Shown: positions 1,334-64,000 of the stretch, in pieces | Layout: each line of letters opens with the position of its first letter | Position numbering within the stretch: position 1 is the first letter of the stretch | NCBI GenBank assembly: GCA_944320495.1 | Contig: CALUHR010000008.1 | Coordinates: 42,249 to 106,248 of the forward strand | Length of the DNA stretch: 64,000 bases | Direction: 5' to 3' | Source of the DNA: Candidatus Methanomethylophilaceae archaeon | Lineage (GTDB): Archaea > Thermoplasmatota > Thermoplasmata > Methanomassiliicoccales > Methanomethylophilaceae | Made by a program: the position numbers and the translations under genes | The notes under the pieces: model-generated | What the model saw: the letters and a program-made list of their open reading frames with translations, nothing else | The model's database searches: none | What the model was told of the DNA's origin: nothing

Positions 1334-2686
1334 TCACATCTCCGGCAGGACTCCCTTGCCGAAGATCCTCACGACCTCCGACTCCATCTTCGCGTTCGAG
1401 AATAGAATGACCGAGTCACCGTCCTCCATCCTGGTGTCCAGCACCGGGTACAGGATCTCGCCTTGGCGCTCGATGGCCACGAGACGGAGCCCCTCGGGCA
1501 TGTTCAGGTCCCCGACGAAGCGGTTCAGCAGCTTGGAGCCCGAGTCGACGACATGGGTGAAGAACATCCAGTCGCTGCTCTGCATCCTGGCTATGGCCAG
1601 CTCGTCGGAGACGAGGCATTTGATGATCTCGTTGGACACGACCTGGTTGAAGCCGATGATGGTCTGCAGGCCGGTGTAGCGGAAGATGTCCTCGTACTCG
1701 CGCATGAAATACCGAGAGATGACCTTGCGCGCGTTGTGCCTGCCGGCGGACATGCACATGAGGAGGTTCGTCTCGTCCCTCGACGAGGTCGAGACGGTGG
1801 CATCCACGCGGAACACGTTCTCGTCCGCCTGGATGTTCGGGTCGGTGTAGTCGGCGTTGATGATGGCGACGCCGCTGAGCGCCCTGGAGAGGGCGATGCA
1901 GCGGGCCGGGTCGCGCTCGATGATCTTGATGTATCTCTTTACGGGATCGTCGGAGAGCATCTTGGCGAGGTTTAATCCGACGATGGAGCCTCCGAGGATG
2001 CAGACCTCCCTGGTGACGTCCTCGACACCGACCATCTCGTTGAACTGGGAGATTGCCTCGTCGCTCCCGAACACGCACAGGCGGTCGCCGGGATGGACCT
2101 CCATCGTCTCCGGGGATGTGAACACATCGTCGTCGCGATAGATGGCGAAAACGGTGCATCCTGGCGGTATGGGGAGGTGCATGACGACACGTCCCACGAT
2201 GGGCTTCTGTCCCTGGACGGAGAACACGGCGATGCTCACGCCCATGCTCCTGATGCTCTCGTACTCGACGACGTTCTCGAGGACGCTGAGCCTGTACATC
2301 TTCTCCGCGGTCGTCAGGTCGGGGGATATGATGTAGTCGATGCCCTCCACGCCGTCGGACGCGGTGTCGACCATGAAGTCGGGGTTGTGGATGGTGGCCA
2401 CGGTCTTGATGTCGGGCTTGATCCTCTTGGCCATCATGCAGACGAATAGGTTCTCCGAGTCTGAGCTCAGCGTCGAGACTATGACCTCGGCGCCATGGCT
2501 CTCTATGGCGTATCTGAGGATGCGCGGATTCGTACCGTCCTCCCTCAGGACGGCGACGTTGAGGCGGCCCTTCAGGGTCTCCGTCACGGATTCGTCCTTC
2601 TCGATGACGAGGACGTCGTGAACGTCGGAGACCGTCTCGGCGGAGACGAATCCGACGTTCCCCGCCCCGACTATGATGACCTTCAT
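1334..2686 (-). CDS. trkA: Trk potassium transporter NAD-binding subunit
   Basis: MKVIIVGAGNVG Rossmann start, duplicated RCK_N/RCK_C layout, adjacent to trkH. Confidence 0.95.
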   Translation of the reverse strand: MKVIIVGAGNVGFVSAETVSDVHDVLVIEKDESVTETLKGRLNVAVLREDGTNPRILRYAIESHGAEVIVSTLSSDSENLFVCMMAKRIKPDIKTVATIHNPDFMVDTASDGVEGIDYIISPDLTTAEKMYRLSVLENVVEYESIRSMGVSIAVFSVQGQKPIVGRVVMHLPIPPGCTVFAIYRDDDVFTSPETMEVHPGDRLCVFGSDEAISQFNEMVGVEDVTREVCILGGSIVGLNLAKMLSDDPVKRYIKIIERDPARCIALSRALSGVAIINADYTDPNIQADENVFRVDATVSTSSRDETNLLMCMSAGRHNARKVISRYFMREYEDIFRYTGLQTIIGFNQVVSNEIIKCLVSDELAIARMQSSDWMFFTHVVDSGSKLLNRFVGDLNMPEGLRLVAIERQGEILYPVLDTRMEDGDSVILFSNAKMESEVVRIFGKGVLPEM

Positions 2687-2826
2687 CCGCTGGGACTACG
2701 CCTACGGGAACTATAACACTTTTCGGTCGGTCGGGAGGGGTCATCCAGCCCCCTCTCCCTTCCATATATAGGATATGGAGTTTCCGACCGAATCATATTA
2801 ACATTGAGATTCGCATCCGTCGCCTC

Positions 2827-4083
2827 ATGTGGCAGCAAGTCAACGAGGACTTCTGGAAGGAGAACCGCGAATCCAAGGTCGGACAGGTCGAGGACACCGT
2901 CCGCGAGATCGTCGAAAACGTCAGGCAGAACGGCGACAAGGCCCTCAGGGAGCTGGCGAAGAAGTTCGACAAGGTCGACCTGGGTGAGATCGCGGTGACC
3001 CGCGAAGAGATCGAGGCCGCCTACGAGCAGGTGAAGCCCGAACTCGTGGAGGAGCTCGAGAACGCTGCATTCAACATCGAGAGGTTCCACAGGATGCAGA
3101 TGCCCGCAGGCCTCTGGCTCACCGAGGTCGAGCCCGGCATCACCCTCGGGGTCAAGTCCACCCCCCTCGAGAGGGTCGGATGCTACATCCCCGGAGGGCG
3201 CGCGTCCTATCCCAGCACCGTGCTCATGACCGCCATCCCCGCCAAGGTCGCGGGCGTCGACGAGGTCATCATGTGCACCCCCGCACCGATCAACCCCCTC
3301 ACCCTCGTGGCCGCCGACATCGCCGGCGTCGACGAGATCTACAAGTCCGGAGGCGCCCAGGCCATCGCCGCCATGGCCCTCGGTACCGAGAGCATCGAGC
3401 CCGTTCAGAAGATCGTCGGGCCCGGCAACGTGTTCGTCACCGGCGCCAAGATGATGCTCCGCAACACCGTCGACATCGACTTCCCCGCCGGCCCCTCCGA
3501 GATCGGCGTCCTCGCAGACGAGACCGCCGTGCCCGAGTACGTGGCCTCCGACCTCATCGCCCAGGCGGAGCACGACCCGTCCTCCGCCAGCCTGCTGGTC
3601 ACCAGCGACCCCGACCTCCCCGACAGGATCTGGGAGATCATGGAGGGCATGATCGAGAAGGCCCCCAGGAGGGAGATCATCGAGAAGGCCATGAACAACT
3701 CCGGCTACATCATCGCCGAGGACATGGACCTCGCCATCGAGATCATGAACGGCATCGCCCCCGAGCACCTGTCCATCCAGGTCCGCGACCCGCTGGACGT
3801 CCTCGGCAAGGTCAGGAACGGCGGTTCCATCTTCGTCGGACCCTACACCCCGGTCGCCGCCGGCGACTACGCATCCGGGACCAACCACGTCCTGCCCACG
3901 TCCGGCCACGCCGCAACCTGCTCCGGCCTGAACGTCCACCACTTCATGAAGACCTCCACCGTCCAGATGCTCTCCAAGGAGGGGCTGGCCGTTCTCGCGC
4001 CGACCATCGAGACCCTGGCCACCGCTGAGGGCCTGCACGCCCACTGCGAATCGGTCAAGATCAGGAAGCCGGAGGAGGAGTGA
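2827..4083 (+). CDS. hisD: Histidinol dehydrogenase
   Basis: YIPGGRASYPST, KIVGPGNVFV, DFPAGPSE, EHDP, GDYASGTNHVLPT motifs. Confidence 0.97.
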   Translation: MWQQVNEDFWKENRESKVGQVEDTVREIVENVRQNGDKALRELAKKFDKVDLGEIAVTREEIEAAYEQVKPELVEELENAAFNIERFHRMQMPAGLWLTEVEPGITLGVKSTPLERVGCYIPGGRASYPSTVLMTAIPAKVAGVDEVIMCTPAPINPLTLVAADIAGVDEIYKSGGAQAIAAMALGTESIEPVQKIVGPGNVFVTGAKMMLRNTVDIDFPAGPSEIGVLADETAVPEYVASDLIAQAEHDPSSASLLVTSDPDLPDRIWEIMEGMIEKAPRREIIEKAMNNSGYIIAEDMDLAIEIMNGIAPEHLSIQVRDPLDVLGKVRNGGSIFVGPYTPVAAGDYASGTNHVLPTSGHAATCSGLNVHHFMKTSTVQMLSKEGLAVLAPTIETLATAEGLHAHCESVKIRKPEEE

Positions 4084-4087
4084 TCCC

Positions 4088-7903: not shown

Positions 7904-9193
7904 ATGGGGGATCTCATGGTGACGGGCACGGCATTCTTCGAAGCGGCCGCCGCCTACAACGATGCACCGGTGAAGAGCGGATTGTGCTCCATATGCAAGG
8001 GCGCCCACAGGCTGTGCGGCAAGGACCGCTGCCCCCTGATGATCAAGTTCTACTCGCAGCAGAAGACCCGGCCGCTCATAGACGCCAAGGACCTGGCCGG
8101 CTCAAGCCCACCGTCCGTCTTCGTGGGACGCTACGGATACCCGAAGGTGGACATCGGACCCCTGGTCCCGCCGGAGTTCGGTGACACCTCCGTAATGGGG
8201 AGACCTGAGATGTGGGTCGGGAAGTCGATAGACGAGATCGTCGACATGCGCTTCCGCCTGGTGAGGGGGAAGTACCGCATCGACGCCACCGACTTCGCGA
8301 AGTACGGGCGCATGGTGGACGCGGTCCAGGAGGTGGCGCTGACCGAGCGCCCCATAGACATAGAGACCACCTTCTCCCAGAAGCCCCGCGGCAGGGTCGT
8401 CCTGGACGATGACATCGAGCCCTTCGGTCCTTCGGCCAGGATGGAGGCCATGTCCATAGGCAACGGGAGGTTCGAGAGGAACCTGGAGAGGTCGTTCTAC
8501 GACACCGACATGCGCGCCGTGGACGCCGTGGTGTCGGCGTACAGGGGAGGGACCCTGATCTCCGAGATCCAGAAGGCCTTCTCTGTTGGAACGATGGGGA
8601 CCGGCAAGCGCAGGCGCTTCGTCCCCACCAGATGGAGCATCACCGCCGTCGACGACATCATAGGCAAGGACCTGCTGAAGACCACCAGGTGGAACCCGAC
8701 CATCGACGACTTCAGGCTCTACCTCTGGGAGGAGCTGGACAACAGGTGGGCCATCCTCCTGATGCCCTGCACCTGGAGGTTCGAGCTCATAGAGGCGTGG
8801 TATCCCAACACCACCTGGAACCCCACCGGGAAGACCATAGACGTCATCCACGACAGCGAGTTCTTCGACGGCAGGACGGAGTACGCCCACATCGGAGGAT
8901 GCTACTACGCGTCAAGGATGGCGGTCAACGAGCTGCTCATTAAAGAGGGGAGGACCGCAGGTGCCGTCATCATGAGGGAGGCCCATCCCGGATACGTTAT
9001 GCCCGTCGGGGTCTGGAACGTCAGGGAGAACGTCCGCGCCGCTCTGAAGACGGAGCCCCTCCATTTCGAGACCTACGACCAGGCGATGACCCGTGTGGAG
9101 CAGATGATGGACATCAAGCGCGACGGATGGATCGCCAACTCCGACGTGATGAGGGACTGGCTCGTCCAGAGGAGGATTGAGGACTATTACCGA
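7904..9193 (+). CDS. nreA: Nre family archaeal DNA repair protein with C-terminal PIP box
   Basis: N-terminal CxxC..C..C, GSSPPSVFVG, PTRWSITAVDD, GGCYYA; ends QRRIEDYY then CGA 9191-9193. Standard code runs on to 10225. Start may be ATG 7916. Confidence 0.88.
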
Positions 9194-9974
9194 CACGACC
9201 CTCGGCGACTTCTCCGGAGAGAGGCTGGAATGGGACGGTCCTTTCCGGATAGTGGAGTGCGGCAGGGCGCTGTCCCCATCCGGGCTGGACGAGATGGACT
9301 ACGCCCTGAACCCCTACGGGGGATGCGAGCACGGCTGCATCTACTGCTACGCCCCGGGACACACCCATTCGGATCTCGCGGGATGGAGGGTCGTCCGCGT
9401 CAAGAGGAACGTGATCGACAGGCTGTCCAGGGAGCTGCCCTTCGCGGACGGTATAATCGGCATAGGCACGGTCACCGATCCGTACCAGGCCGCAGAGGGC
9501 AGGTTCCGCCTGACCAGGGGATGCCTGGAGGTCCTGGCCTCGAGGGGCCGGAGGATCCACATCCACACCAAATCGGACCTCGTCCTCCGCGACATCGACA
9601 TCCTGTCGGGGATGGACTGCGTCGTCGGGATCACGTTCACCGGCGTCGATCCGAGGGTCTCGAAGATGACCGAGCCAGGCGCCCCGCTGCCCGAGGCGAG
9701 GCTCCGGGCGATCACCGGCCTCTTGGACGGCGGGGTGCGGACGTACGCCCTGGTCGCCCCCACCATGTCGACCGCCGAGGGGCACGAGGCGGAGATCATC
9801 GATGCCCTCCGTTCCACGGGGGTCCGCCGCGTATACGTGGAACCCCTCAACCTCAGGCTTGTGGACACCACGCGTCTCGACAGGATGGGCATAACCCCGT
9901 CCCCCAAGGCTGTCGCGGAGATGGCCAGACTCTGCCGCGAGGCTGGCATCCTGGGCATGGGCGTGGTTCGTCGA
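9177..9974 (+). CDS. Radical SAM protein, SplB/COG1533-like
   Basis: NPYGGCEHGCIYCYA (CxxxCxxC), TVTDPYQ, IHTKS; CGA 9972-9974, TGA two codons later (9980); TTG start uncertain. Confidence 0.85.
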
Positions 9975-10790: not shown

Positions 10791-11423
10791 TCGTTCGCTT
10801 GGCGGCATGATGAAGTGCGTCCAGAGGTGGGGCTCATAGACGGGCTTCTCGGTTCCCGCCATCCTTCCGGCGTTGATGCACTTCAGGAGCCACGCCATGT
10901 TCTGGGCGAGCGTGCGCATGGTCTGCAGCCCCTCCTCGTCCCTGCGGACGTCTTCGGGGGTGAAGCCATGGACCTGGTTCCAGTATTGTGATGGGACCAG
11001 CGGCATGTTGCAGATCGTGAAGTACTTGTTCAGGCGGTCGAAGGCCGCGGAAGCCCCGCCCCTGCGGCAGGACACGACAGATGCTCCGAGCTTGCCGGCC
11101 ATCCTCGCCGCATTGGAATAGAAGAACCTGTCCGCGAATGCGCAGACCTGACCAGACGGGCCAGCGTAGTACACAGGCGAGCCCAGAACGATTGCGTCGA
11201 ACTCGTCCAGCCTCTCCGCCAGGACGTTGACGTCGTCCTTGATCGAGCACCTGCCCTTCTTGGCGCAGTATCCGCAGTCCCTGCATCCAGCGGTGTCGTT
11301 CTTGATGTGATAAATCTCCGACTCGACGCCCTCCTTGGTGAGTGTTTCCGCAATCTCCTTCAGGGCGGTGTAGGTGCAGCCGTGCTCCTTGGGGCTGCCG
11401 TTGATAAGTAGAACCTTTGCCAT
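10791..11423 (-). CDS. Flavodoxin family / iron-sulfur flavoprotein (NADPH-dependent FMN reductase fold)
   Basis: LINGSP, GCRDCGYCAKKGRC, GSPVYY, RRGG; family-typical end THFI then MPPSE-CGA. Standard code runs to 10602, into the pseudogene. Confidence 0.88.
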
Positions 11424-13082: not shown

Positions 13083-13592
13083 TTGTCGAAGGAACTTATC
13101 GCATTCTACTCAAGGGCCGACGAGAACTACTTCGCCGGTTCCTACAGATACGTGGACGTCGGGAACACCGAGATTGTCGCCGGAATGCTCCAGGAGCTCA
13201 CCGGGGCCGACATTTTCAAGATTGAGCAGGCGAAGCCCTACTCCAAGGACTACAACACCTGCATCGAGGAGGCCAAGGAGCACCAGAGGAGGGACGCGCA
13301 CCCCGAGCTGAAGTCCTGCCCGAAGAGCATCGACGGGTACGACACGATCTACCTAGGCTACCCGAACTACTGGGGGACGATGCCCATGGCCGTCTTCACC
13401 TTCCTCGAGAGGTACGACTTCACAGGCAAGACCATCCGACCCTTCTGCACTAACGAGGGCAGCGGTCTCGGCAGTAGCGTCTCCGACATCAGTAGCCTCT
13501 GCCCCGGGGCCAACATCGAGAAAGGCCTGGCCATCACAGGCGGACAGGCCAGGGGTTCCCGCCCCTCCCTCGAGCGCTGGCTCAAAGGATGA
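13083..13592 (+). CDS. Flavodoxin (Flavodoxin_4-like); contains an internal CGA at 13437-13439
   Basis: GNTEIVA, YLGYPNYWGTMPMAV, PFCTNEGSGLG; TTG start. Would be truncated if CGA terminates. Confidence 0.8.
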   Translation: MSKELIAFYSRADENYFAGSYRYVDVGNTEIVAGMLQELTGADIFKIEQAKPYSKDYNTCIEEAKEHQRRDAHPELKSCPKSIDGYDTIYLGYPNYWGTMPMAVFTFLERYDFTGKTIRPFCTNEGSGLGSSVSDISSLCPGANIEKGLAITGGQARGSRPSLERWLKG

Positions 13593-17061: not shown

Positions 17062-17835
17062 ATGCGCGCAGCGCTATACGCCAGGGTCTCGACGGACGAC
17101 CAGGCGGTCGAGGGTTTCTCGCTCGACGCCCAGGTCAAGCGCCTCGAGGCCTATTGCAGGGTCCGCGGCTGGGAGGTCGGCGGGATCTACAGGGACGAGG
17201 GGTTCTCCGGCAGGAACACCAAGCGTCCGGAGTACGAGAGGATGATGCGCGAGTCCGACTCGTGGGACGTCCTCCTCGTTCTGAAGATGGACCGTATCCA
17301 CAGGAACAGCGTCAACTTCGCCCGCATGATGGACGACCTGCGCGACATGGGCAAGGAGTTCAACTCGGTCCAGGAGAAGTTCGACACCACCACCGCCATG
17401 GGACGGTTCGTCATGGACATCATGCAGAGGATCGCCCAGCTGGAGAGCGAGCAGATCGGCGAGAGGACGTTCATGGGCATGGAGTTCAAGGCCCGCAACG
17501 GCACCGGAAACCTCGGCTCCGGCCACCCGTACGGATACGTGTACACCGAGCACGGCCTGGAGGTCGTGAAGGATGAGGCGCATACGGTGCGCGCGATCTA
17601 CAACATGTACGTAAGGGGCTCCACCATGGAGGACATCGCCGGATTCCTCAACAGCGCCGAGATCCCCGCCAAGAAGGGCGGCAAGTGGAACAGGCAGTCC
17701 GTCTGCAACATCCTCCACAACCCGCTCTACGTGGGATACTCGGAGTGGAACGGCATCCTGCGCAAGGGCGAGCAGCAGCCCATCGTCGAGATGGCGGTCT
17801 TCGAGAAGGTCAACGGGCCGTTGGAGATCCAGCGA
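17062..17835 (+). CDS. Serine recombinase (resolvase + recombinase domains), copy 1
   Basis: ALYARVST, DEGFSG, KMDRIHRN; CGA 17833-17835 overlaps the next ATG. Standard end 17856. Confidence 0.92.
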
Positions 17836-18692
17836 TGCGTGCGGCCATATACGTGAGGGTCTCCACCGAGGAGCAGGCCGCCGAGGGGTACTCCATCGAG
17901 GCCCAGAAGGAGCTACTCCAGGACTACTGCATCGTCGAGGGGTGGGAGGTCGCCGGCGTCTACGAGGACGACGGATTCTCCGGAAGGAACGACAAGCGTC
18001 CCGCCTACCGCAAGATGATGTCGGAGATGGACCTTTGGGATGTGGTCGTCGTCATCAAGATGGACCGTATCCACAGGAACAGCCGCAACTTCATGTCCAT
18101 GATGGACACGCTCACCAAGCATGGGAAGATGTTCGTGTCCTCGTCCGAAGCATTGGATACGACCAACGCCCTCGGGAGGTTCGTGGTCGACATGATACAG
18201 AGGCTCGCCCAGCTGGAGAGCGAGCAGATCGGCGAGAGGACGTACATGGGCATGCGCGAGAAGGCCGAGACCCTCGAGGCCGTCCAATCCGGTAAGAGGA
18301 CCATGGGCTTCACGCCGCCGTTCGGCTACCGTCTTGAGGACGGGGCACTCGTCGAGGACGAGGGGGAGCTCCCGATCGTCAGGCGCATGTTCGCCGAATA
18401 TGCCGAGGGCAGGCCCATGGATGCGATATGCTTCGGCCTCAACCGCGACGGGATACTCACCCGCAGGGGCAATCCCTGGAACAAGCGCAACCTCGCCAAC
18501 ATCCTCCACAACCCCGTCTACGCCGGGTACATGAGATGGGAGGACATCCTCATCCGCCACGATGCGGAGACGGTCCTCTCGCCGGAGCAGTTCAACGGCG
18601 TGCAGGAGCGCATCGCCTCCAGGATCAGGGACCCCTCCAAGAGGGGCGTGAATCTCCTTCCAACAGAGTCAGATTATGCGACGGGGATGCGA
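17835..18692 (+). CDS. Serine recombinase, copy 2
   Basis: AIYVRVST, DDGFSG, KMDRIHRN, TPPFGYR; CGA 18690-18692. Standard end TAG 18710. Confidence 0.92.
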
Positions 18693-19603: not shown

Positions 19604-20355
19604 TGATCGCCGTCGTCACCGGGGCATCGTCGGGCATCGGGGCCGAGTTCTGCAGGGCCCTGGACGGGGAGGGGCTGGATTCCATCTGGATCATCGCCAG
19701 GAGAGCCGACAGGCTGGAGGCCCTGGCATCCGAGCTCTCCACCCCCTGCGTCGTAATCCACGCGGATCTCACCGACAGGAAGCAGCTGTCCGAGCTCGTC
19801 GGACGCATAGGATCCTCCGGCGAGAGGGTCGACTACCTGGTGAACTGCGCCGGAGTCGGCAGGTTCGGAGAGACCTGGGAGCTCTCATCGGAGGAGACGC
19901 TGTCCATGATCGACCTGAACGTCTCCGCCCTCACGGAGATGTGCCGCGGATGCATCCCCCGCATGGAATCCGGATCCCGCATCATCAACGTCTGCTCCGC
20001 ATCCGCGTATCTTCCGCTGGAGCGCCTCAACGTGTATTCCGCCACCAAGGCGTACGTGCGCGCGTTCTGCAACGCCCTCGGAAGGGAGCTAAAGACCAGA
20101 GGCATCACGGTATTGGAGGTCTCCCCTGGATGGGTGGAGACAGATTTCATCCCGCTCTCCAGGTCCACAGGCGACGTTCCCGAGACTGTCTTCAAGCACA
20201 CCGTTAAGGCTCGCGACGTCGCCGTGAGGGCCATCGCCGACGCCAAGCACGGGAGGAAGCGCTCGATATGCGGCGCGTACAACAGGCTCCAGGTCTTCGT
20301 GTGCACCCACATGCCTCGCATGGCATCATACGTCTGGGGAAGGTCCCTGCTGTGA
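19603..20355 (+). CDS. Short-chain dehydrogenase/reductase (DltE-like)
   Basis: VTGASSGIG, NCAG, YSATK catalytic motif. Confidence 0.93.
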   Translation: MIAVVTGASSGIGAEFCRALDGEGLDSIWIIARRADRLEALASELSTPCVVIHADLTDRKQLSELVGRIGSSGERVDYLVNCAGVGRFGETWELSSEETLSMIDLNVSALTEMCRGCIPRMESGSRIINVCSASAYLPLERLNVYSATKAYVRAFCNALGRELKTRGITVLEVSPGWVETDFIPLSRSTGDVPETVFKHTVKARDVAVRAIADAKHGRKRSICGAYNRLQVFVCTHMPRMASYVWGRSLL

Positions 20356-20957
20356 CGACGGTCCTCCGCGAGTTCAGGGAGGGGGACTGCAAACCCATAT
20401 CCGCGATAATGTGCGACGTCTGGTCCATGGTGAGCTACGGCGCCGATGTCGCCATGCCCGGGTCGAGGATGTACTGCTGCCAATGCGTCCTCGGGTCGTC
20501 GTTCATCCGTGTGGCCGAGGTCGACGGGAGGATCGTCGGATGCGTCGGGGCCAGATACGGGAACGAGAGGGTCGATGCACCCTGGGCCGAGAGGATGCTG
20601 CGGCAAGAGAGGGATTCCTTGGCGAACTCCGAGGACGGGATGCGGATGATCGCCGAGTTCGAGTCCTACGATTCCATAGACAGGGACCTCGGCATCAGTA
20701 CCGAGATCGACACCGATGCGGAGCTCACCATACTCATCCTTTCCGAGGGTTGCAGGGGACTCGGACTGGGCAGGATGATGTTCAACGCCGCCTGCGATTA
20801 CCTTCGCTCCAAGGGCGCCGGGAGCATGATGCTGTACACCGACACCGACTGCAACACAGGGTTCTACGATGCCCTCGGCGCAGAGCGCGTGGCAACCTCA
20901 GGAATGATGTGCCTGGGGGAGCCGCTCGGAATGTTCCTTTACAGATATCCGCTGCGA
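20352..20957 (+). CDS. GNAT acetyltransferase
   Basis: GTG start overlapping the SDR stop; CRGLGLGR acetyl-CoA motif, YTDTDCNTGFY; ends MFLYRYPL-CGA. Standard end 21131 overlaps the convergent gene. Confidence 0.85.
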
Positions 20958-28419: not shown

Positions 28420-28567
28420 GTTCTCTCACTCCTTTGCATCAATTAAATCTTGTAAAGCTATCACATGAATTATTCTATATTTATCATCAAGCAATCTTCT
28501 AATGCAACCTCATCGCGAGATGCGTTAGGGCCCCCATCGGAATCCGCTATATCAAATGGCTGGGGAA

Positions 28568-30277: not shown

Positions 30278-30385
30278 GGTCTTCCATATCGACGGAAAGG
30301 TAAAAATCCGCTTCGGTTCGTCTACGTTTGAAGGGATGGAAGTCGTGAGCGATTATGTAATTGATGACCTTTGATGCATGGCCGT

Positions 30386-31297: not shown

Positions 31298-31391
31298 CGG
31301 CCCGCGATTGACTGCGACGGTTAAAACAGTTCGTCAGGGCCGTTCAGTGTGACTGCGCCAAGGTTAGATAGTATCCGTCCATTGCGCGGTC

Positions 31392-32732: not shown

Positions 32733-32737
32733 GTCCC

Positions 32738-35097: not shown

Positions 35098-35119
35098 ATG
35101 ACGAGCCGATTCGGCATCC

Positions 35120-41162: not shown

Positions 41163-41234
41163 GACGCCGTCTGCCGCAATGGGGATTTAAGCGGAACGGC
41201 GCAGGCTACACTCTTCGATATAGGGAGCGTAGCA

Positions 41235-48024: not shown

Positions 48025-51000
48025 TCGAACCTCCGGCAGCCAGTCCCCGCCGAGCCTCACGTCCTCGACCCTGCCGTTGAGATTCCTGTAGGTGAGCGTC
48101 ACCCCCATGCCCCCGTCCACGGTCACCGTGGTCAGGACACCGGCGCGGTTGGACATCGGGTCCCTCTCGCGCATGAGGACGGCCAGGGAGGACCATCTTC
48201 CCGACATCGCCCTGTCGCGGATCCCCGCGAGCCGCGACGGGTCCATCTTCGATACCGCGGCGATGTTCGTCTCGAACACCATCGAGACCCTCCCTCCGCG
48301 GGTGTCGAGGTCGAAGCAACAGTACGGGCCGTCCTCCTCCCAGGTCCCGTCCACAGGCTCGAACATCCCGCGGAAACGCTCCGCACCCTCTGGGTCCGTC
48401 AGGATGCAGTCGATGGTCCTGAGCTTGCCGTCGCTCGCCGGGTCGTCACCGGCCTGGAGGACCGCGTCCGCTCCGGGGTCGATCCAATGGAACTCGAAGC
48501 GGTCGAGATCGTATCCCGCCTCGATCTCCGAGGCGAGGGTCTCGAACTCGTAGTCGCCGGGCACCAGCTCCAGCCCCCTGCGGACCGCGTCCATCGCCGC
48601 AACCCTGTCGCCGAAGTGGGCGCGCAGCTTGGCGACCTGCAGCCACACCCATGGATAGCACGGCTCCTCGACGGCCCCCCTCTCGGCGTATACCAGCGCC
48701 TCCTCGAGGCGACCGCAGTACATCAGGGCGCAGGAGTAGCGGTAGAACCATGTCCCGCAACCCGATGCCGCGGATTCCGACGAGGGCATCCACCGTGCAG
48801 CGCGCCAGTAGTGGACGTAGTCCCCGATGTTCAGGCAGGCGTAGGAGAACCAAAGCGCCACGTCCAGGTCCCTCTCGACTTGTCTCGAGCTGAACCTCCC
48901 CGACCTTATCCCGTCGTTGAGGGTTTCTACCAGGTCACCGAGCATCGCGTGATACCGCCCGTCGATCTCCCCCTCATAGGAGGAGAGGCGCTCGACGTCC
49001 TCCTGCGACAGGATGGGCTCCGCGGGATCCTCGGGAACGGTGCGGTCCATGACCCTGACCGAAGGGCAGTCCCTGCGGAAGCTGTGGAAGCTGGCCCATG
49101 CCAGGTCAGTCCCCTCGAAGAAGCGGGATGCGGCGGAGAGCGTGCGCTCCAGGTCCCAGGCCATGAGGTCGATGTATCCGTACCGGGTCCCGGTTGCTCC
49201 TCCGATGATGCGTACGGAGTCCTCGCCCGCCTCGGCGACGATGGCTTCGGATGCCGCGTCGCGGAAGCGGAGGATGTCCCCGGAGCGGTCTTCCCCGGCG
49301 AAGCCGTCGAGCGGGAATATCAGGAACCCCGCCACGGCGCCGTCGGCGTGGAGCATGTCCGCCGAGGCGTCCTCGCAGGAGATGTAGCTCCCCACGAGCT
49401 TGGCGCAGGAGGTGACGCCGACGACCACGTCGGCCCTCCAGTCCGCCTCTGGATCCTCCACGGGGTCGGACCTGTAGACCCTGCTGACGTTCAGGTACGA
49501 GTCGGCGTCGATCTCCATGTTGAAGCCCATGTCGATGAGACGGTCCCTGAGCTCCGACAGGCGGACGGTGTCCCCCTCCGGGGCCTTGCCGACCACGTCG
49601 ATGCCGTCCAGGACCGACATGGCGGGGACCTCGCCGATGACCCTCTCCATCAGGTTGGCTACCATCCATCCCACATCGTCGGGTTCGGTGGAATATAGGC
49701 TGTCCAGCTTCCCGCAGTGCATCGTGAGCCTGACGAAGTCGCCGCTCCTCTCGATGGATACGTCCACGTCCTCAGGCGCTATCCTCACGCCGTCATGCTC
49801 GATCTCCATGCCGATGCCGGGAGGCCGGCCGGCGGTCACTCCCCATCTCCTCAGCACGTCCTCGGGCGCGCGCCTGATGAACTCGGAGATCTCGAACAGC
49901 CTCACCCTGTCCGCCTCCGGGGTCAGGATGAGATGGAACCTCTCGCCGTCATGACCGATCTCGAAGGCGACATCCCCGAACGTGATATCCAGTATCCCAT
50001 CGACCAGACCGATCAGTTCGCCCTCGACGACGGCACGGTCGGGATGGGCCAGGAGCCTCTCGATCTCGTCCATCTCCTCGGCGAACCTCCTCCATGTGAG
50101 CTCAGCGCGCTCGCGGAAGCATCTGTGGAAGCGGGGGTGCGCCAAACCGTTCAGACAGGATCCCAGCATCTCCCCCGCATCCGGATCGGTCTCGGCTGCC
50201 TTGGCGAAGTACGGAATCGCCTCCGGCTCCCTGTCCATCATGTAGTACGAGTATCCCATGCGGTAGTTCCAGAGCGGATCGTCCGACTTGGCTTCCCGGA
50301 TGGATTCGAGGATGGCTATGGCCTTGCGGAAGGGCTCAGGATCGTCCGGTCCGCCGATGTTGTTGTACGCCCTGGCGAGGATCCCGTACAGGTCGGGGGT
50401 CCTCTCGGACTCGGGCAGAGCCTCGATCGCCTCTATGATCCTCTTGTGGAGGCCCTCGACGTGCCAGCTCTCCAGCTGCTCCATCAGCGGGGATTGGTCT
50501 GCACCGGGGGAGGCGTCGCCGCCCGATGCCGCATCCCATGCGGGATCGTCCATCACCTCCTCGACGGAGATGTCCATGCGGTAGAACGAGAGCATGTCGG
50601 AGAACGTCTCCCTGATGGAATCGACATCGGACCCCGTCATCCGGTAGCCCAGCTCGTCCTGGAGCTTCAGCACGCTTCCGGCCCTGGACCTCAGCTGGTC
50701 GATCATCTCCTGGCGGGACCAACCGCCCGTCGGTATCCAGAAGCTGAGGCCCCTGAAGATGTGCTGCGTACGCCTGAGGAAGTCCTCCGGGACCGATCCC
50801 CCGTCGGCCATCGCCCTGCAGAAGACGTATTCTTTCGGGAAAGGGCGCTCGTCTTGGAACGGCCAGAGGTCGGCCTCGGGCACCTCGGCGGACGCCTCTT
50901 TCTGGATGCCGTCCTCGGTGACGGGCTCATCGAGACGGACGATCCTCCTTATCAGGAACCTTCCGGGGATCTCACCGTCCGGGCCGGTCTTTATCGGATT

Positions 51001-51726
51001 GAAATGAGGCGAGCATGGCAGGTATCCGAGCACGGGGCCGTATCCCGTGAGGATGTTCCCGCCGAGGTCCCCGCCCCTGAACAGAGGGGTCTCTGAGCGT
51101 ACCAGTTCGACCTCGAACGGGTCGTATGCGATGGTCAGACCGAACTGGTTCGCCTCTTCGAACACGCAGGGGCCGTCGAATCCCTCCAGATGCCTGAGTC
51201 CGGAGCGGAAATCGAAGCGGTCGCCCCAGAGGAACAGAGTCTTGGAGCCTCCGCCGCAGAGATACTCCCATTCATCCGATGTCGGGAGATCGAATCCCTC
51301 CTCCAGGGAGCCGAGAGCATCCTCGGTCCTCCCCTCGAACGCATCGGGCATCATCTGCACGAGCATGGGCGGGACGACTGCTGTCCGAACGGAACCGATC
51401 ATCCTCCTCAGCACCTCGTCGGGATCCCCCTCGTACCCGTGCTCCCTCAGGACGCGTTCGATCTGGAAACGCGTCTCCCCGTCCAGATCCTTGAAGGAAC
51501 CTCCCCATTCGAGGGTCACGGTGTCCCCCGGCACGAATACGAAGTAACGGCCGTCCCTCTCGAACACTGCGGAATAGGTGTAGATGCCCCATCTCTCGAA
51601 CCTGCGGAAGCCGACGAGCGTCATGCCGTGGGATTCGCCTGCCGCACGGAGGATCCTCTGCCTCGAATCGATTGTGAGAAGGTCGTATTCGTTCCTGTAG
51701 AGCCGGCGGAGGTCCTCTTCGTCCAT
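48025..51726 (-). CDS. Large multidomain TPR-containing protein
   Basis: N-terminal LPTSDEWEY..LFLWGD block, TPRs (WNYRMGYSYY), C-terminal domain shared with 28568-30277; ends WLPEV-CGA. Standard end 47995. Confidence 0.75.
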
Positions 51727-51970
51727 GGGATCGACACGATATCCGTCTCTTATAATAAATACGTTTAGAGTTGTTACGTCCTTAACCGAATCCGCGACTG
51801 TGCGTTTGGAATTTCCGTCACCATCGCAGCCGATTCGGCCATTTCATTGACGATATCAACATCCGATCTCATTCGCGGATGACTTTTGGGATTCAAACTT
51901 CATCAAATTAAAGACTTAGAAGATTTTGCAGTTTGTAAGATTTATAATGGATGAAGACGATTGAGACCTC

Positions 51971-53038
51971 ATGTCCGACTTGGATTCCGCGCTCAAGATG
52001 CAGATCGACATGATCAGGGCACAGGCAGAGACCCAGAAGAACATGTACCGGCAGATGTACGGATCCGATCCGGCGATGGCCGAACAGTTCTGCGCCCAGA
52101 TCGATCAGAACACCGAGATGCAGATCAACATGATCATGCAGATGATGGGCGGGAACCAGGATCCCGGGGAGGCCCTGCTCGACCAGATGTCGCATGCGAG
52201 GGACGTCCTCGGACAGCTCGGCTACGGTGAGGGAGAGATATCCGCAGCCATGGGCGACGACGCAGGGGACACCCTCACCGAGAGGGTTCTGGGGGACCTC
52301 GACCCGTCTGAGTTCGGATACGGCGACATCGTGACGGCCATCGCATCCCTCGACGAGCTCGGGGAGATGACCCCCGCTCCGGCGGATGCCGACGGGATTC
52401 GCAGGTTCGAGATCCTCCTGACCGGCATAATCTCCACCCTCAACGACCATCTGCTGGACGGCCTGGACGTGGAGCCGAGGAACGCCGAGAGCACGGACCT
52501 GGTGAGATCCATCCTGTCGAACTACTGGGGAGTGGAGGGGAGGGAGAGTCTCATCGACACCCTGAGGTACCTGATCGTGTCCGGACACACCATGGACTAT
52601 GTGAGCGCACTGGAAGCCATATCGTCCGGCAAGGACGCCGCCGCGCTCCATACCGAGGACATGGACGAGGAGGACATCGCGGTCTCCGACGCCAGGTTCG
52701 CGTTCACGGAGGCGTACGCCGGCAAGGTGGATCCGGTAATGCTCCGCGGGTGGGATCTGGGCAGGGCCGCCAACGTCACCCGCTGGGGATACTTCATCGG
52801 CTTCATCACCGAGGAGGAGGCCTGGGGACTCCTGGACCAGATAGCGGACGGGTGCATGGAGGCCTTCGACTCCTGGAGGTCCTTCGCCCAGTCGTACATC
52901 TTCGGGAGCATGTACTGGAAGTGCCCGTACGGCCCGGACGCATGCTACGAGAACATCGCAGGCCTGATGTTCGCCGTGGAGCACCTGCTCACCGAGGGCG
53001 AATGGAAGGACTCCCCCTGGGCGAGCGGCAGGGCATGA
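51971..53038 (+). CDS. DUF1266-like domain protein
   Basis: YWGVEGRE, WDLGRAANVTRWGY, FDSWRSFAQSYIFG. Confidence 0.7.
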   Translation: MSDLDSALKMQIDMIRAQAETQKNMYRQMYGSDPAMAEQFCAQIDQNTEMQINMIMQMMGGNQDPGEALLDQMSHARDVLGQLGYGEGEISAAMGDDAGDTLTERVLGDLDPSEFGYGDIVTAIASLDELGEMTPAPADADGIRRFEILLTGIISTLNDHLLDGLDVEPRNAESTDLVRSILSNYWGVEGRESLIDTLRYLIVSGHTMDYVSALEAISSGKDAAALHTEDMDEEDIAVSDARFAFTEAYAGKVDPVMLRGWDLGRAANVTRWGYFIGFITEEEAWGLLDQIADGCMEAFDSWRSFAQSYIFGSMYWKCPYGPDACYENIAGLMFAVEHLLTEGEWKDSPWASGRA

Positions 53039-54486
53039 ACCTGGAGGAGCTCGAGGCGGCCTACGGGTACGGCGGGTCGCGCGAAGAGGTCATGAGGGTC
53101 GTCAGAAAGATAGACCCGTCAGAGACGGCGCCGCACGGAGTCACCGCCTTGCACATCGCCGCCCGCCAGGTCGACCCCGAGACGATGGAGGCCCTCCTGG
53201 ATAGGGGATTCCGTGCCGGCGCCACCGACGAGTACGGCAACACCCCGCTGCATATCCTCGCGGTGCAGAGATGGGACGGCCGCGTGTCGAAGATGGCCGA
53301 ATGCACTGACCTCCTGCTGACCCACCGCTGCCCTCCGTCGAGGAGGGACGATCGCGGGAGGTGCTTCTATCACATAGCAGCGCAGATGCACAACCTGCCG
53401 ATGATTTCCGTCATCGGCCAGAGAATGGTGCGCTGCGACGCCCTCCTCGAGGACTCGGGGATGAACGCCCTGCACGTGCTGTGCGATTCGGCATCGAGCT
53501 ACGACTACATCCGCGAGAGCAGACCCGAGGAGTTCGAGGAGAAGGACCGCATGTGCCGCCGCATGGCCGAATGGCTGGTCGGATGCGGCATCGATCCGGA
53601 GGCGGAGACCAGGATCGGCAGGAAGGCCATCGACTTCGCCGTCGGGAACAGGATCAAGCTGACCTCCTCTTTCCTCGCCGGGAACGACGATGCTGTCTCG
53701 GGAGGCATGGACCTCCACCAGGCCGTAACAGTGGACGATGCGGAAGCCATCTCGGCGATACTCTCGGCCGGAGCCGACCCCGATGCGCTCTGCGACAGAC
53801 CGGGCGACTATCTCGGGATGACCCCGCTGATGGTGGCCTGCCGGAGGATGGCCAGGGAATCGGCGGAATCGCTTATCCGTGGAGGAGCATCCGCGTCCTA
53901 TGCGGACGGCCGCGACGGCAGGACCGCCCTCTACCATCTCCTGAGGGCCCTCTCCTCGACGGTGGGGACGGGAAGCAACGCCAGGGACTCGGGCAGCTTC
54001 CTCTCCATGCTGAGGATGGTCGCGGAGGCCCAGGGCACGCCGGATCTCCCGGTGAGCGATGAGGAAGGTCCCGCGCTCTGCTTCCTGGCGGGGAACGACA
54101 GGCTGGGACACACCTCGGACGGGAGGTCCGTGAGGAGCATCGCCTTCGAGACCCTCGCTTCCATGGGCGCGGATGTCGATGCCAGGGACAGCCACGGCCG
54201 CACGCCTCTGATGCTCGCTTGCGGGATCCCGGGGCCGGAATCGGAGGGCATCGTGTCCACCCTGATGGAGCTCGGGGCGGATTGCGACGCCCGCGACGGG
54301 GACGGCACCACCGCCCTCATGAGGGCGGCATCCATCCCGGGGAACGCGGGCATCGACCTCATCAGGGCGATGCTGGACTTCTGCGTGCCCGACCCAGGAC
54401 TGAGGGATTCGAAGGGCAGGGACGCGCTGGAGATGGCATCGGACGCCGGCAACGCCGACGTCGTCCGCCTTCTCCTCTCCCTGCGA
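53035..54486 (+). CDS. Ankyrin repeat protein
   Basis: GVTALHIAA, GNTPLHIL, GMTPLMVA, GRTPLMLA; ends VRLLLSL-CGA, 21 nt before the convergent gene's end. Standard end 54636. Confidence 0.88.
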
Positions 54487-55955: not shown

Positions 55956-55964
55956 GCGAACACC

Positions 55965-57179
55965 TCGGACCATCAGCTCCATCACCGATTCCATGCCCGC
56001 GGAGGCCGCCATCTCGCCGGCGGTGACCCCCTTATCGTCGGGTATGTCGTATCTGGCGCCCTTCTTCACGAGCAGCCTGGCCGACTTCTCGTCCCTCCAG
56101 GAGATCGCGTGGTGAAGGGCCGTCCTGCCGTGCGAATCGCAGGCGTCCAGTGCGGCGCCTGCCACCACGAGGGGCTTGACCACGGCCCCGTGGCCGTTGG
56201 AGACGGCCGCCATCAGAGGCATGGTGCCGTCGTTCATCGCGATGTTCGGATCCGCCCCGAGGTTCAGCAGGGCCTCCGAGAGCCCGCCGTCCTGGTAGCG
56301 GTAGGATGTCAGCACGAGGATCAGAGGGGTCATGCCCCTGTCGTCGGCTACGTCGAGGCATCCGACCTTCGACAGTATGGCGATCTTGCGTGAAACTACA
56401 GCCTCCATGCCCGGCACGGATTGCCATTGGCGGCAGACGCTGACGGGGGGCTGCATGACCGCGTAGTGCGCCGCCGTGCGTCCGGAGTTGTCTGTCCGGG
56501 ATGTGTCCGCACCCCTGCCGATCAGCAGATCGGCGGACGCATCGTCCCCGATGAGACAGGCGGCGCAGAGGGGCGTTACTGAATCGAAATCCACCGCGTG
56601 TCCGTATCCCTGACGGGCCTCCGAACCGGGTGCGTCTGGATCGGCGCCCGTGTCCAGGAGCGCCTCGGCCAGATCCCTGTGTCCGAAGAGGACCGACAGG
56701 TGCAGGGGCGTGGCGCCGTATGCGTTGCAGACCATCCAATCTCCGGCATCGCCGGCGAGACGGGCCACGGCGGCCATCTCGGCCTCGCGGTCCCCCGCCC
56801 ACCCGGACCTCTCCATGGAGGCCAGAAGATGGAGGGCGTTGGAACCGGCGCGGTTGCACGATGTCAGGTCGGCGCCCGCCTCGGACAGACCCTTATAGAC
56901 CTCAGGACGGCAGATGCAGTGGGAGGCGCACATCGTCGGCAGCGTCTCCCCGTCGGGGAACCTGACACGGAGATCGAAGCCCCTGCCGGCGAGCATGCCG
57001 ATGAAATCGGTCGCCCGATCGGATTTGAGGGCCCTCTCGATCAGGCCCTCGGCGGCGTTCGCCTCGTCATCGTCATCCATGTCGAATCCTGATATCATCT
57101 CGGCAGCATCCGAAGCGGCCTGCTCCGCCCTGCCCTGGAAGAAATCCAGTTCGATCCTCCTTATCGCATCCCCATCCAT
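55965..57179 (-). CDS. Ankyrin repeat protein
   Basis: GATPLHLS, GRTAAHYA, GMTPL, GRTALHHA; ends VMELMV-CGA. Confidence 0.87.
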
Positions 57180-57198
57180 TATCGGCACCCCTTCGGAA

Positions 57199-57807
57199 TC
57201 GTCTCTGCACAGCATCCACCCTCAGGCCCGAGACCAGTTCGACGAGACGGTCCACCTGGATGTCGATGGCCTCATCCACGGCCTCCCCGTAGAGGAACGG
57301 CAGCGAATGCTTGCCCGTCCGTCCTATCCAGACGATCGACATCAGCATGTTATAGAACACACGGGGATCGAGACGGCTGACCGGGACGCCGAGCAGATTG
57401 AGGACCTCGGCGAAGAGCACGATGCGGTCGTTCTTGAATCCGGCGAACTCCTCGTCGCTCAGCAGCGTCCTGATGTACGTCTGGTCGTCGAAAGTGGCGA
57501 TGAACCATCTGCCGGACAGCAGATCGTCCAGGGTGGTCCTCAGACCGTTGTCCGCGCCGTAGTTCCAGACGTTGGTTCTGAAGCATCCGAGCATGTCCTC
57601 CGACTGGAGGTGGAACATCTCGATTATCAGGGCGGCTTTCGACGGGAAGAACGAGTAGAAGAACGTCTTCGAGATCCCTTCGGGAAGATAGATGTCCTCA
57701 AGGCTGGTCTCCCTGAGACCCTTCTCGGCGAAGACCTCTGCGGAACGCCTCAGCATATTCATGCGGATGGCGTCGCGTTCCTCCGCAGTGTACGCCTTCC
57801 TGGACAT
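57199..57807 (-). CDS. TetR/AcrR family transcriptional regulator
   Basis: FAEKGLRETSLEDI..GISKTFFYSFFPSK; CGA end gives about 202 aa. Confidence 0.88.
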
Positions 57808-61656: not shown

Positions 61657-62280
61657 ATGCCGACCTGCCCCAAGTGCGGAGCCTACAACCCGGACAGTTA
61701 CGAGTTCTGCTCCAGATGCGGCGAGATGATGTCGCCCGTCGAGATGGGCGCACCCGTCTCCAGGAGATACGCCGCGGACCGTCCCGCTCTGCGCTACCTG
61801 CTCATAGTCCTGCAGATAGTCCCGTGCGTGCTGGGACTCTACCTGCTGTTCGGCACGAGGCTCGACATCACCGGCTTCTACGGATTCTTCTCCGATACGA
61901 TGTCCATAATGGAGATCCTCGACCAGGGCTGGTACCCCACCAGCATCTCCGCGTCCGGATTCACCATCATCTTCTGGATATCCGCCATACTCTTCATCGT
62001 GGGCCTCTCCGTCCCGGTGTTCCACATATTCGGATACGTCATGACCCTCGGAATGGCCATGGGCATGTCGGAGATGTACGTGTTCGGCTCCGACTCCATC
62101 ATCATAGTCGGGGCGGATGTCGGCGGCATGGAGATCCTGGCGGTCCTCGGCCTGCTCATGGGGATCGCGGCGCTGCTCCTGTGGTTCGCCGTCGTCGTGC
62201 GCGGACCCTGCGCCAGCATGCCCCTGAAGCTGAGGCTCGCATACGTGTGGACCGGCAGGGTCGGTGAGAGGGAGAGGCGA
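61657..62280 (+). CDS. Zinc-ribbon membrane protein
   Basis: GGAGG RBS, CPKCG..FCSRCG, four TM segments; ends GERER-CGA. Confidence 0.8.
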
Positions 62281-62976: not shown

Positions 62977-63027
62977 CGCTGAGGGATACTTCCAACGGGT
63001 AGATAATTATTAGGAAGAACTAAAAAT

Positions 63028-63047
63028 GGGAGGGATCGTCCCCTCCC
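63028..63047 (-). terminator. Hairpin downstream of aspS
   Basis: gggaggg..ccctccc followed by a T-run on the minus strand. Confidence 0.55.
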
Positions 63048-63057
63048 GTGGGGTTTT

Positions 63058-64000
63058 TCAGGGAGCCAGCCTGGAGGTGTCCCTCGGGAAGAGGATGACC
63101 TCCCTGATGTTGGGCAGGTCCAGGGCCTTCTCCAGGAGCCTCTCGGTTCCGATGCCCCATCCGCCGTGCGGGGGCATGCCGTACCTGAAGGCCTCGAGGT
63201 AGAACTCGAAGTCCTCGGGGTTAAGGCCCTTCTTCTCCATCCTCCTCACGAGCACGTCGTACCTGTGCTCCCTCTGTCCGCCGGAGGAGACCTCCTGGCC
63301 ACGGTAGTCCAGGTCGAAGCTGTAGGAGTAGGGGGTGCCGTCCTTCTCCATGATGTAGAAGGGCTTGGCCTCCTCAGGGTACTCGGCGATGAAGTACAGG
63401 TCGATCCCCTTCTGTCCCATGATATCGCCGACGATCTTCTCCCCCTCGGTCCCGAGGTCGTCGCCCTCGTTGAGCTTGAGCCCGGCGTCGTTGACCATCT
63501 TCAGGCACTCGGAGTACGTGAGGATGGGGTAAGGCCTGGCTGGGACGTTGATCTCCTTGCCGAGGATCTCGAGCTGCTTGGCCCCCCTCTCCTTCAGACC
63601 CCTGAGGACGTGGTCGACGATCTCCTCGATCATCGCCATTACGTCGTTCTGGTTCTGGATCCAGGACATCTCCCCGTCGAAGGAGATGAACTCCGTCACG
63701 TGGCGGTTGGTGTTGGACTGCTCGGCCCTGAAGGCGGGACCGATCTCGTAAACCCTGTCGAGTCCGGTGGACATCAGGATCTGCTTGTACAGCTGGGGGG
63801 ACTGGGCGAGATAGGCGGGCCTGTCGAAGTACTGGACCCTGAACAGCTCGGCCCCTCCCTCGGCGCCGGCGGCCCCGATCTTGGGGGTGTACACGCGGGT
63901 GAACCCGTTCTCCCTGACGGCCTCCTCGATGAGGTCGACCATGATGGACTTGAGCTCGAAGATGGCCTTTATCTCGGGCTTGCGCACATCCATGAACCTG
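63058..64000 (-). CDS. aspS: Aspartyl-tRNA synthetase, archaeal type (5' part outside window)
   Basis: AYLAQSPQLYKQ, FRAE..RH, YGMPPHGGWGIG, LFPRD. Confidence 0.96.
   Translation of the reverse strand, partial: RFMDVRKPEIKAIFELKSIMVDLIEEAVRENGFTRVYTPKIGAAGAEGGAELFRVQYFDRPAYLAQSPQLYKQILMSTGLDRVYEIGPAFRAEQSNTNRHVTEFISFDGEMSWIQNQNDVMAMIEEIVDHVLRGLKERGAKQLEILGKEINVPARPYPILTYSECLKMVNDAGLKLNEGDDLGTEGEKIVGDIMGQKGIDLYFIAEYPEEAKPFYIMEKDGTPYSYSFDLDYRGQEVSSGGQREHRYDVLVRRMEKKGLNPEDFEFYLEAFRYGMPPHGGWGIGTERLLEKALDLPNIREVILFPRDTSRLAP

Follow-up and report, generated by a model that had tools for sequence, protein, structure and literature searches.

The question raised by this stretch of archaeal DNA is which codons its genes end on. 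The window, by which we mean the whole stretch analysed (64,000 nucleotides, positions 42,249 to 106,248 of contig CALUHR010000008.1, here G000:C8:42249-106248), belongs to the genome G000 of a gut-type methanogenic archaeon (1.77 Mb, 14 contigs, 61-62% GC). The organism is placed in the family Methanomethylophilaceae, order Methanomassiliicoccales, in a genus, g1, that is separate from the M. alvus genus g17. An initial annotation of the window had proposed a stop set of UAA, UGA and CGA, with UAG being a sense codon. Sequence statistics and comparison with relatives strongly support this stop set, and we put at roughly 0.78 the probability that in genus g1 CGA changed from an arginine codon to a termination signal beside UGA and UAA, with UAG read as pyrrolysine.

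Genes were called using a self-written, self-training codon-bias caller, which scores the log-odds of a coding frame versus the other five frames and accepts non-overlapping open reading frames (ORFs) greedily; domain and homology results, from Pfam and orthologue comparison, were kept apart from the caller-based ones. When the window was re-called with TGA, TAA and CGA as stops and TAG as sense, its 54 confident genes were found to end in TGA (27), CGA (25) or TAA (2) and never in TAG, as the initial annotation had described, and to be closely spaced or abutting. The same held genome-wide, with 1131 ends at TGA, 378 (24%) at CGA and 48 at TAA, and the number of confident genes rose from 1423 to 1563 once CGA was a stop and TAG was sense; the ends under the standard code were 1364 TGA, 121 TAA and 98 TAG. 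Across the 1423 confident standard-code genes, the first of the four candidate codons to be met was TGA in 1099, CGA in 251, TAA in 48 and TAG in 19.

The position of CGA within genes points the same way. In-frame CGA fell within the last fifth of the standard-code ORF in 429 of 510 cases (binomial p ~1e-173 against a generous 25%), and no coding potential was found 3′ of it in 92%, compared with 18-32% for nine other rare codons (CGG, CAA, CCA, TGT, CCT, TCT, TCA, CGT and AGA), all of which were evenly spread along ORFs. No coding segment followed 216 of the 251 CGAs that were met first, and most of the remaining 35 were junctions of two consecutive same-frame genes. The in-frame log-odds of CGA, -3.6, was the lowest among sense codons, corresponding to a ~36-fold rarity in frame relative to out of frame, and only a handful of CGAs in ~464,000 codons were neither a gene end nor a junction, which is ~10-fold or more below the next-rarest sense codon, TTA (0.18 per 1000). 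Codon periodicity stopped at CGA, and the codon preceding it was an ordinary sense codon. Measured from the terminal CGA to the next TGA or TAA, 47 tails exceeded 30 codons, 29 exceeded 50 and 15 exceeded 100; the long ones ran antisense through neighbouring genes, as in Nre (343 codons) and a helicase (195 codons), and the nine control codons showed no such tails. Genes of the window that end at CGA include the following, listed together with one exception.

7904..9193, plus strand: Nre gene, called only under the revised code; ends at CGA 9191-9193 (codon 430), with the Pfam domains Nre_N and Nre_C ending at residue 428/429; the frame stays open for the 343 further codons, to 10225, across the next genes, and 17 more CGAs lie in this tail.
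9189..9974, plus strand: radical SAM gene; ends at CGA 9972-9974, with TGA two codons on.
10791..11405, minus strand: FMN reductase gene; ends at CGA 10793-10791, and the 62-codon tail scores negative.
13098..13592, plus strand: flavodoxin_4 gene, the exception; CGA 13437-13439 (codon 114) lies inside the domain (Pfam match over residues 21-162), and the conserved PFCTNEGSG motif comes after it, so that either this CGA would be a read-through site or the gene a young pseudogene.
17077..17835, plus strand: serine recombinase gene; ends at CGA 17833-17835.
17841..18692, plus strand: second serine recombinase gene; ends at CGA 18690-18692, with the TAG 18708-18710 of the ORF track in the non-coding tail.
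20322..20957, plus strand: GNAT acetyltransferase gene; ends at CGA 20955-20957, and its tail contains five CGAs.
20965..21996, minus strand: aldo/keto reductase gene with a C-terminal 4Fe-4S domain; carries an in-frame sense TAG at 21204-21202, presumably pyrrolysine, with the Fer4 domains past it; ends at CGA 20967-20965, with TGA directly after.
23861..24988, plus strand: HipA_C-like gene; ends at CGA 24986-24988.
27646..28425, minus strand: gene ending at CGA 27648-27646, followed by three more CGAs in a short spacer and then by a second same-frame gene, 27573-26395.
28568..30289, minus strand: TPR/DUF4261 gene; ends at CGA 28570-28568, with the ORF-track TAG 28549-28547 in the tail.
30386..31321, minus strand: TPR gene; ends at CGA 30388-30386.
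32738..34426, plus strand: YgiQ-type radical SAM gene; ends at CGA 34424-34426, and the 53-codon tail scores -33.
35117..35995, plus strand: Sel1-repeat gene; ends at CGA 35993-35995.
39090..41186, minus strand: SF1 helicase gene; its in-frame sense TAG 40163-40161 is spanned by the AAA_11 domain; ends at CGA 39092-39090, 22 residues after the end of AAA_12; the frame stays open for the 195 further codons antisense to the neighbours, and the CGA abuts the TGA of a convergent gene (TGATCG).
41804..42685, plus strand: trypsin-like peptidase gene; ends at CGA 42683-42685, with TGA directly after.
43637..45625, plus strand: XPD helicase gene; ends in FFR-CGA, with TAA four codons on.
48025..51735, minus strand: TPR gene of 1236 codons; ends at CGA 48027-48025.
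53011..54486, plus strand: ankyrin-repeat gene; ends at CGA 54484-54486, with an ORF-track TAG at 54634 in the tail.
55965..57215, minus strand: ankyrin-repeat gene; ends at CGA 55967-55965, with a further same-frame gene downstream.
61657..62280, plus strand: gene ending at CGA 62278-62280, with an ORF-track TAG at 62674 in the tail.
62281-62964, convergent to the preceding gene: gene whose CGA end, 62283-62281, abuts that of its neighbour to form the palindrome CGATCG.

The share of genes ending in CGA is ~46% in the window and 24% genome-wide. Proteins with TPR, Sel1 and ankyrin repeats are numerous in the window (28568-36000 and 48025-57215), which also holds the two tandem serine recombinases (17077-18692) and the HipA_C-like gene; it resembles an accessory region of low codon bias, which may account for the raised share. 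An Rfam match to the C/D box sRNA sR41 (60869-60921; 55.9 bits, gathering score 54) overlaps the sequence immediately beyond the CGA that closes the gene at 60930-61454.

The gene ends were also compared with those of relatives, for which 100-400 kb per genome was sampled. Across ~1.2 Mb of sequence from seven relatives, the C-termini that could be aligned place 34 TGA, 6 CGA and 2 TAA codons opposite the terminal CGAs of G000, and three arginine codons (CGG twice, AGA once); the remaining aligned codons were scattered sense codons where the relative is longer. For XPD, six same-genus orthologues end in FFR-TGA at the very column of the FFR-CGA of G000. In independent genomes of the same genus, CGA closed ~10% (G013), 26% (G010), 12% (G009) and 7% (G004) of the genes, and the signal was weaker in two further members, G008 and G015. 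In the Ca. M. intestinalis-like genome G024 and in the genera g11, g12, g18 and g20, CGA occurs evenly along genes as a sense codon, at 0.9-3.7 per 1000. Gene bodies in g15, g16, g17 and g23, and in G008 and G015, the g1 members of lower GC, contain almost no CGA, and the few copies are mostly at gene ends. The share of CGAs classified as terminal-like was discarded as a measure in such low-CGA genomes, since its values of 2-3% in G008, G015, g15 and g17 lie within the classifier background of 0-5% seen in genomes with sense CGA, so that the scarcity of internal CGA is the only usable sign there; for g15, g16, g17, g23, G008 and G015 the case for CGA termination is suggestive only.

TAG is read as sense in this genome. 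Coding potential continued past TAG in 14 of the 18 scorable genes among the 19 in which it was the first candidate stop; the segments beyond it score as ordinary coding sequence, have a median length of 131 codons, and include methylamine methyltransferase-like genes. This leaves an upper limit of 5 TAG-terminated genes in 1423, three of which have TGA or CGA 0-4 codons on, so TAG is not a common true stop elsewhere in the genome. Within the window, the initial annotation had taken the TAG ends at 18710 and 28547 to follow an earlier CGA and those at 21202 and 40161 to be internal, and each placement was borne out: TAG 18708-18710 comes after CGA 18690-18692 and 18699-18701, with coding potential ending at the first of these; TAG 28549-28547 on the minus strand comes after CGA 28570-28568; and, by Pfam, TAG 21204-21202 lies within the aldo/keto reductase gene, whose 4Fe-4S domain is encoded past it, and TAG 40163-40161 within AAA_11 of the SF1 helicase. 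Two more ORF-track TAG ends, 54636 and 62676, are likewise downstream of a CGA (54484 and 62278), and the other TAG-ended ORFs are low-scoring frames (8131/8497/8719, antisense to Nre; 40062, antisense to the helicase; and 43203). A match to the PylS C-terminal family (260.8 bits, C9:67854-68522) adjoins a tRNA-Pyl(cta) predicted by ARAGORN (C9:68685-68755). UAG thus appears from its sequence setting to be read as pyrrolysine in G000, which matches the published Genetic Code 34, in which all TAG codons encode pyrrolysine in some archaea, this family included (Kivenson et al., bioRxiv 10.1101/2024.09.30.615893); low usage of TAG as a stop was reported for 'Ca. M. alvus' (Borrel et al. 2014, PMC4153887). 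G000 shares with that code the archaeal family, pylS with tRNA-Pyl, and TAG codons that stand in conserved domains and essentially never terminate. The TAG half of the finding is therefore already known, whereas CGA is never mentioned in either paper. The initial annotation had also linked the full commitment of UAG to pyrrolysine with the gain of CGA as a stop; this coupling was not borne out, because g11 and g12 are free of TAG stops and keep sense CGA, and a coupled swap of TAG and CGA is not shown.

What might read CGA as a stop is suggested by the release factor. G000 has one canonical aRF1 (C2:85942-87135) plus a Pelota-like paralogue. The aRF1 of all genus members reads NIKS-KTT-M-KNV, and HMMER aligns this Met, at position NIKS+4, to Arg68 of human eRF1 and to the matching Arg of two solved archaeal aRF1s. 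Representative aRF1/eRF1 sequences were drawn from 150 clusters at 50% identity, and in the 117 in which the NIKS motif could be located, the NIKS+4 residue is Arg in 101 and Lys in 10. The factor is thus not identical to those of standard-code relatives. Arg68 of eRF1 hydrogen-bonds the backbone of the NIKS loop, and in simulations of an Arg68Ala human eRF1 a C in first stop position is predicted to cost 1-2 kcal/mol instead of ~6 (Lind, Oliveira and Aqvist 2017, PMC5681627). The residue substituted here is the one predicted there to enforce U over C, although that work simulated an alanine and here the replacements are natural Met or Leu; judged by this alignment, a relaxed U/C reading (YGA recognition) is plausible. 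Arg or Lys at NIKS+4 is kept within the family only in g19, g20, g21 and g27.

Three of the representatives carry Met at NIKS+4, namely two GGW paralogues and one fragment, 80% identical, whose source is presumably this genus or a close relative. The two paralogues, P0017 and P0116, were rejected as independent Met-bearing lineages, as both have GGW for the catalytic GGQ and say nothing on the canonical factor. P0017 lies on an integrase-bearing contig of 37% GC on which CGA is an ordinary codon. GGW paralogues with Met at NIKS+4 lie at L194 (JGI 3300030616, contig Ga0272442_10005311) and L196; the contig of one of them (17 kb, 37% GC) encodes an integrase and a recombinase besides numerous unknown genes, and may represent a mobile element or a virus with a release-factor mimic. 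Positions 56 and 59 of aRF1 (Q and A) were dropped as genus-specific changes, being variable across archaea and uninformative. Elsewhere in the factor, the GTS loop, which reads stop positions 2 and 3, is R-S-T-E in G000 and the near-identical G018 and R-G-T-E in all other relatives, a change at the position of eRF1 Gly31; and in the aRF1 of G001 (L131) the motif is NIRS for NIKS, a Lys63 to Arg change at a residue contacting the first stop base.

The aRF1 gene itself has a single CGA, and in 21 of 22 genus genomes this is codon 68, where it specifies the conserved Arg of SIAA-R-LKTYK. Its context is fixed as (G/T)CT CGA CTN, with the otherwise rare GCT or TCT before it, and adjacent synonymous sites vary. 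The exception, G005, has Lys at the codon-68 site and a CGA at codon 15. Outgroups encode the codon-68 Arg by CGC, CGT, CGG, AGA or AGG. The aRF1 genes of other CGA-poor genera retain one early CGA, at codon 15 in all four g17 genomes and most of g15, and at codon 1 in g16 and g23. That CGA was gained at new aRF1 positions while these genomes otherwise eliminated the codon speaks for selection to keep one early CGA. A well-known parallel is the bacterial gene prfB, where an in-frame UGA early in the gene of RF2 serves autoregulation. The aRF1 gene likewise has an early, conserved copy of the factor's proposed own codon in a conserved local context, and by this analogy the CGA may be a feedback device at which abundant aRF1 stops its own synthesis and scarce aRF1 permits read-through as Arg. 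Unlike in prfB, the reading frame continues unchanged through the CGA with no frameshift, read-through would insert Arg, and the position differs between genera (codons 1, 15 and 68); the feedback is proposed from the likeness.

The tRNA that would compete for CGA, tRNA-Arg(UCG), is present in all genomes examined. Its anticodon arm is canonical in 12 genomes from outside the genus, having a 5-bp stem (sometimes with G-U) and a CUUCGRA loop, with one C-A mismatch at 28-42 in G037. Within the genus two altered types occur: in 14 members, e.g. G000, G013 and G004, the 31-39 pair is broken (A-A, C-A or U-C) and an extra 26-44 pair is present, and in G008 and G015 U33 is changed to C with a 27-43 mismatch. 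The loss of this tRNA envisaged in the initial annotation was thus not what was observed, the gene being kept throughout and altered only in this genus. An apparent loss in the two complete genomes of the genus was also withdrawn: BLAST and pattern searches had missed the gene, and a diverged C33 copy was present among the 43 Rfam tRNA matches of G008. From its predicted fold, a weakened but living tRNA-Arg(UCG) fits a codon that would still be read at a few sites.

The properties of the terminal CGAs indicate what kind of stop this is. The base after them is U in 54-57% and the base before is C in 52%, and TGA stops are without comparable bias; beyond these flanking-base preferences, no single sequence motif was found around terminal CGAs. 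Part of the excess of T after CGA comes from convergent genes with abutting stops, such as CGATCG at 62278-62283 (CGA on both strands) and TGATCG at 39087-39092 (TGA and CGA). The next in-frame TGA or TAA lies a median of 15 codons after CGA versus 41 after TGA, and CGA closes 26% of genes in the quintile with the weakest codon bias against 5% in that with the strongest. This suggests that CGA is a weaker, somewhat leaky stop at mutation-selection balance.

Two of the remaining internal CGAs are informative in their own right. In the gene of ribosomal protein L18e, CGA stands at codon 30 in 28 of the 29 Methanomassiliicoccales genomes searched (L160-L188; G000 C13:191701-191913 is L161), including those with ordinary CGA, and its flanks are conserved too (ATC TGG CGA GAC AT); this suggests that the region is under nucleotide-level constraint, such as that of an RNA element, a pause or a regulatory site. 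At C13:193615-194694 of G000, a gmhA-like gene (SIS) and a gmhB-like gene (HAD phosphatase) are linked in frame through one CGA, and the conserved AVFIDRD motif is not preceded by a start codon, so that termination could yield GmhA alone and read-through a GmhA-GmhB fusion. None of the CGAs in aRF1, L18e, the flavodoxin gene or the gmhA/gmhB junction has U next. CGA is better called a leaky, context-dependent terminator than a clean reassignment.

Several observations weigh against termination at CGA. The caller is home-made and not a validated program, and all coding-potential results depend on it. CGA occurs at conserved residues in aRF1 and L18e, within the flavodoxin domain and at the gmhA/gmhB junction, which means that it is decoded at least sometimes, and near backup stops would also be expected if read-through of CGA occurred and extensions were tolerated only when short. 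The stems of tRNA-Arg(UCG) show compensatory changes and the gene is maintained, so it is functional in some way, and g15, g17 and g23, with very few CGAs, have the canonical form. Met or Leu at NIKS+4 is present in most genera of the family, including g11, g12 and g18, where CGA is an evenly spread sense codon, and g18 still shows TAG-terminated genes; the variant is thus at most permissive, a precondition and not the whole cause. Of the shifted aRF1 specificity proposed in the initial annotation, the Met at the Arg68 position and its fit to the simulations stand, but the family-wide occurrence of Met/Leu, also with sense CGA, keeps it from explaining the change by itself.

Much of this would be expected if CGA were still plain Arg, with GC-biased drift having turned TGA into CGA, short junk extensions running to the next standard stop, and CGA internally rare from a poor tRNA; the retained tRNA with its compensatory stem changes, the CGAs at conserved residues, standard stops twice as close after CGA as after TGA, and the concentration of CGA ends in low-codon-bias genes would all suit such a state. 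It is hard to reconcile with the near-total purge of a codon that is ~36 times commoner out of frame, with 47 tails beyond 30 codons and 15 beyond 100 that run antisense through other genes and have no counterpart for other codons, or with CGAs newly gained in the aRF1 gene while purged elsewhere, and a hungry codon ending a quarter of genes would stall ribosomes unless release happens; we regard it as unlikely. A related account makes CGA an unassigned, hungry codon, at which stalled ribosomes are rescued by a non-stop/no-go pathway (Pelota/ABCE1-type or similar) and not by aRF1 recognition. The defective anticodon arm in the genus and a Pelota-like gene, itself ending in RYRL-CGA, would agree with it, but Pelota is without a peptide-release motif, so that a hydrolase would still be needed; aRF1 itself is indicated by the conserved CGA in its gene and by its Met at the position of Arg68, and g15, g17 and g23 purged CGA with a canonical tRNA. 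Yeast eRF1/eRF3 can act on stalled CGA codons (PMC7379694), which would favour this account, yet overall we think it quite improbable.

Editing of terminal CGAs to UGA in mRNA by C-to-U deamination, with the code unchanged, would explain the one-to-one exchange of CGA and TGA in orthologues and the context bias. The CGAs at conserved Arg in aRF1 and L18e would have to escape it, no single motif marks the terminal CGAs, the changes in aRF1 and the tRNA would be left unexplained, and mRNA C-to-U editing is not known from archaea, so that it has very little to commend it. A sequencing or assembly artefact, namely a systematic T-to-C error at stops, e.g. at a methylated motif such as CGATCG, could be read into the T that follows 54-57% of terminal CGAs and the frequency of CGATCG. 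The effect is, however, codon- and frame-specific, is seen in many independent assemblies, single-contig genomes among them, and includes many terminal CGAs without CGATCG, and that palindrome is explained by the abutting CGA stops of convergent genes (62278-62283); we consider an artefact next to negligible.

If CGA has become a termination signal in genus g1, the single aRF1, in which Met replaces the Arg (Arg68 of eRF1) that keeps the NIKS loop stiff, would accept C or U at the first stop position and would compete at CGA with a tRNA-Arg(UCG) of defective anticodon arm, release usually winning. The CGA stop would be weak and context-dependent, preferring U after and C before it, favoured in genes of low codon bias and backed up by nearby standard stops, and a handful of CGAs would still be decoded as Arg, including the early CGA of the aRF1 gene, which would place aRF1 synthesis under negative feedback. 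We infer that aRF1 is the factor by which the peptide is released at CGA, that the Met variant has a causal role and that the aRF1 CGA is autoregulatory. We lean slightly towards the view that a cellular lineage here turned a sense codon into a stop, by steps that may be visible across one family: the Arg68-type residue was lost, CGA became rare, CGA was purged save for one feedback sensor in aRF1, the tRNA-Arg(UCG) arm degenerated, and TGA-to-CGA drift reached a quarter of gene ends. If the coupling idea of the initial annotation also holds, a single remodelling of the aRF1 N-domain both freed UAG for pyrrolysine and cleared the path for CGA.

Sense-to-stop changes are familiar from organelles (NCBI tables 2, 22 and 23), where AGA/AGG in vertebrate mitochondria, UCA in Scenedesmus and UUA in Thraustochytrium became stops. 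As in these, the sense codon here vanishes from coding positions and turns up at gene ends; unlike in these, the genome is an archaeal chromosome of ~1600 genes from a free-living or gut-dwelling organism, the cognate tRNA is kept and a few sense uses remain. The misdecoding of CGA by yeast eRF1/eRF3 was seen in reporter assays (PMC7379694); CGA is the sense codon nearest UGA. In two hydrothermal-vent archaeal assemblies that read CGG as Trp, CGA is absent from recognisable domains and a stop meaning was raised (Melnykov, bioRxiv 10.64898/2026.04.02.715157); they belong to another lineage, which is reported to lack tRNA(UCG), the stop meaning was put to no positional or comparative test in that work, and G000 shows no CGG change. 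The dual-meaning stops described in ciliates (Swart et al. 2016, PMC4967479) share the context-dependent stop/sense codon, but are frequent sense codons, whereas the sense uses of CGA in G000 are a handful. No paper describing CGA termination in Methanomassiliicoccales was found in the literature searched, which is not proof that none exists.

For annotation, the standard code gives about a quarter of G000 proteins false C-terminal tails and leaves ~140 genes fused, shadowed or missed (1423 versus 1563), and the same errors apply to the public protein sets of the genus. The PylRS/tRNA-Pyl pairs of this family serve in genetic code expansion. The genus also offers a natural test of how eRF1/aRF1 read the first stop base, for which Arg68 has so far been approached only by mutagenesis and simulation, and possibly an archaeal counterpart of RF2 autoregulation. 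If confirmed, termination at CGA would be the first sense-to-stop code change established in the main genome of a free-living organism, such changes not having been established before outside organelles, and the second archaeal code variant after Code 34, with the genera of the family forming a graded series in which the change of a codon's meaning can be studied.

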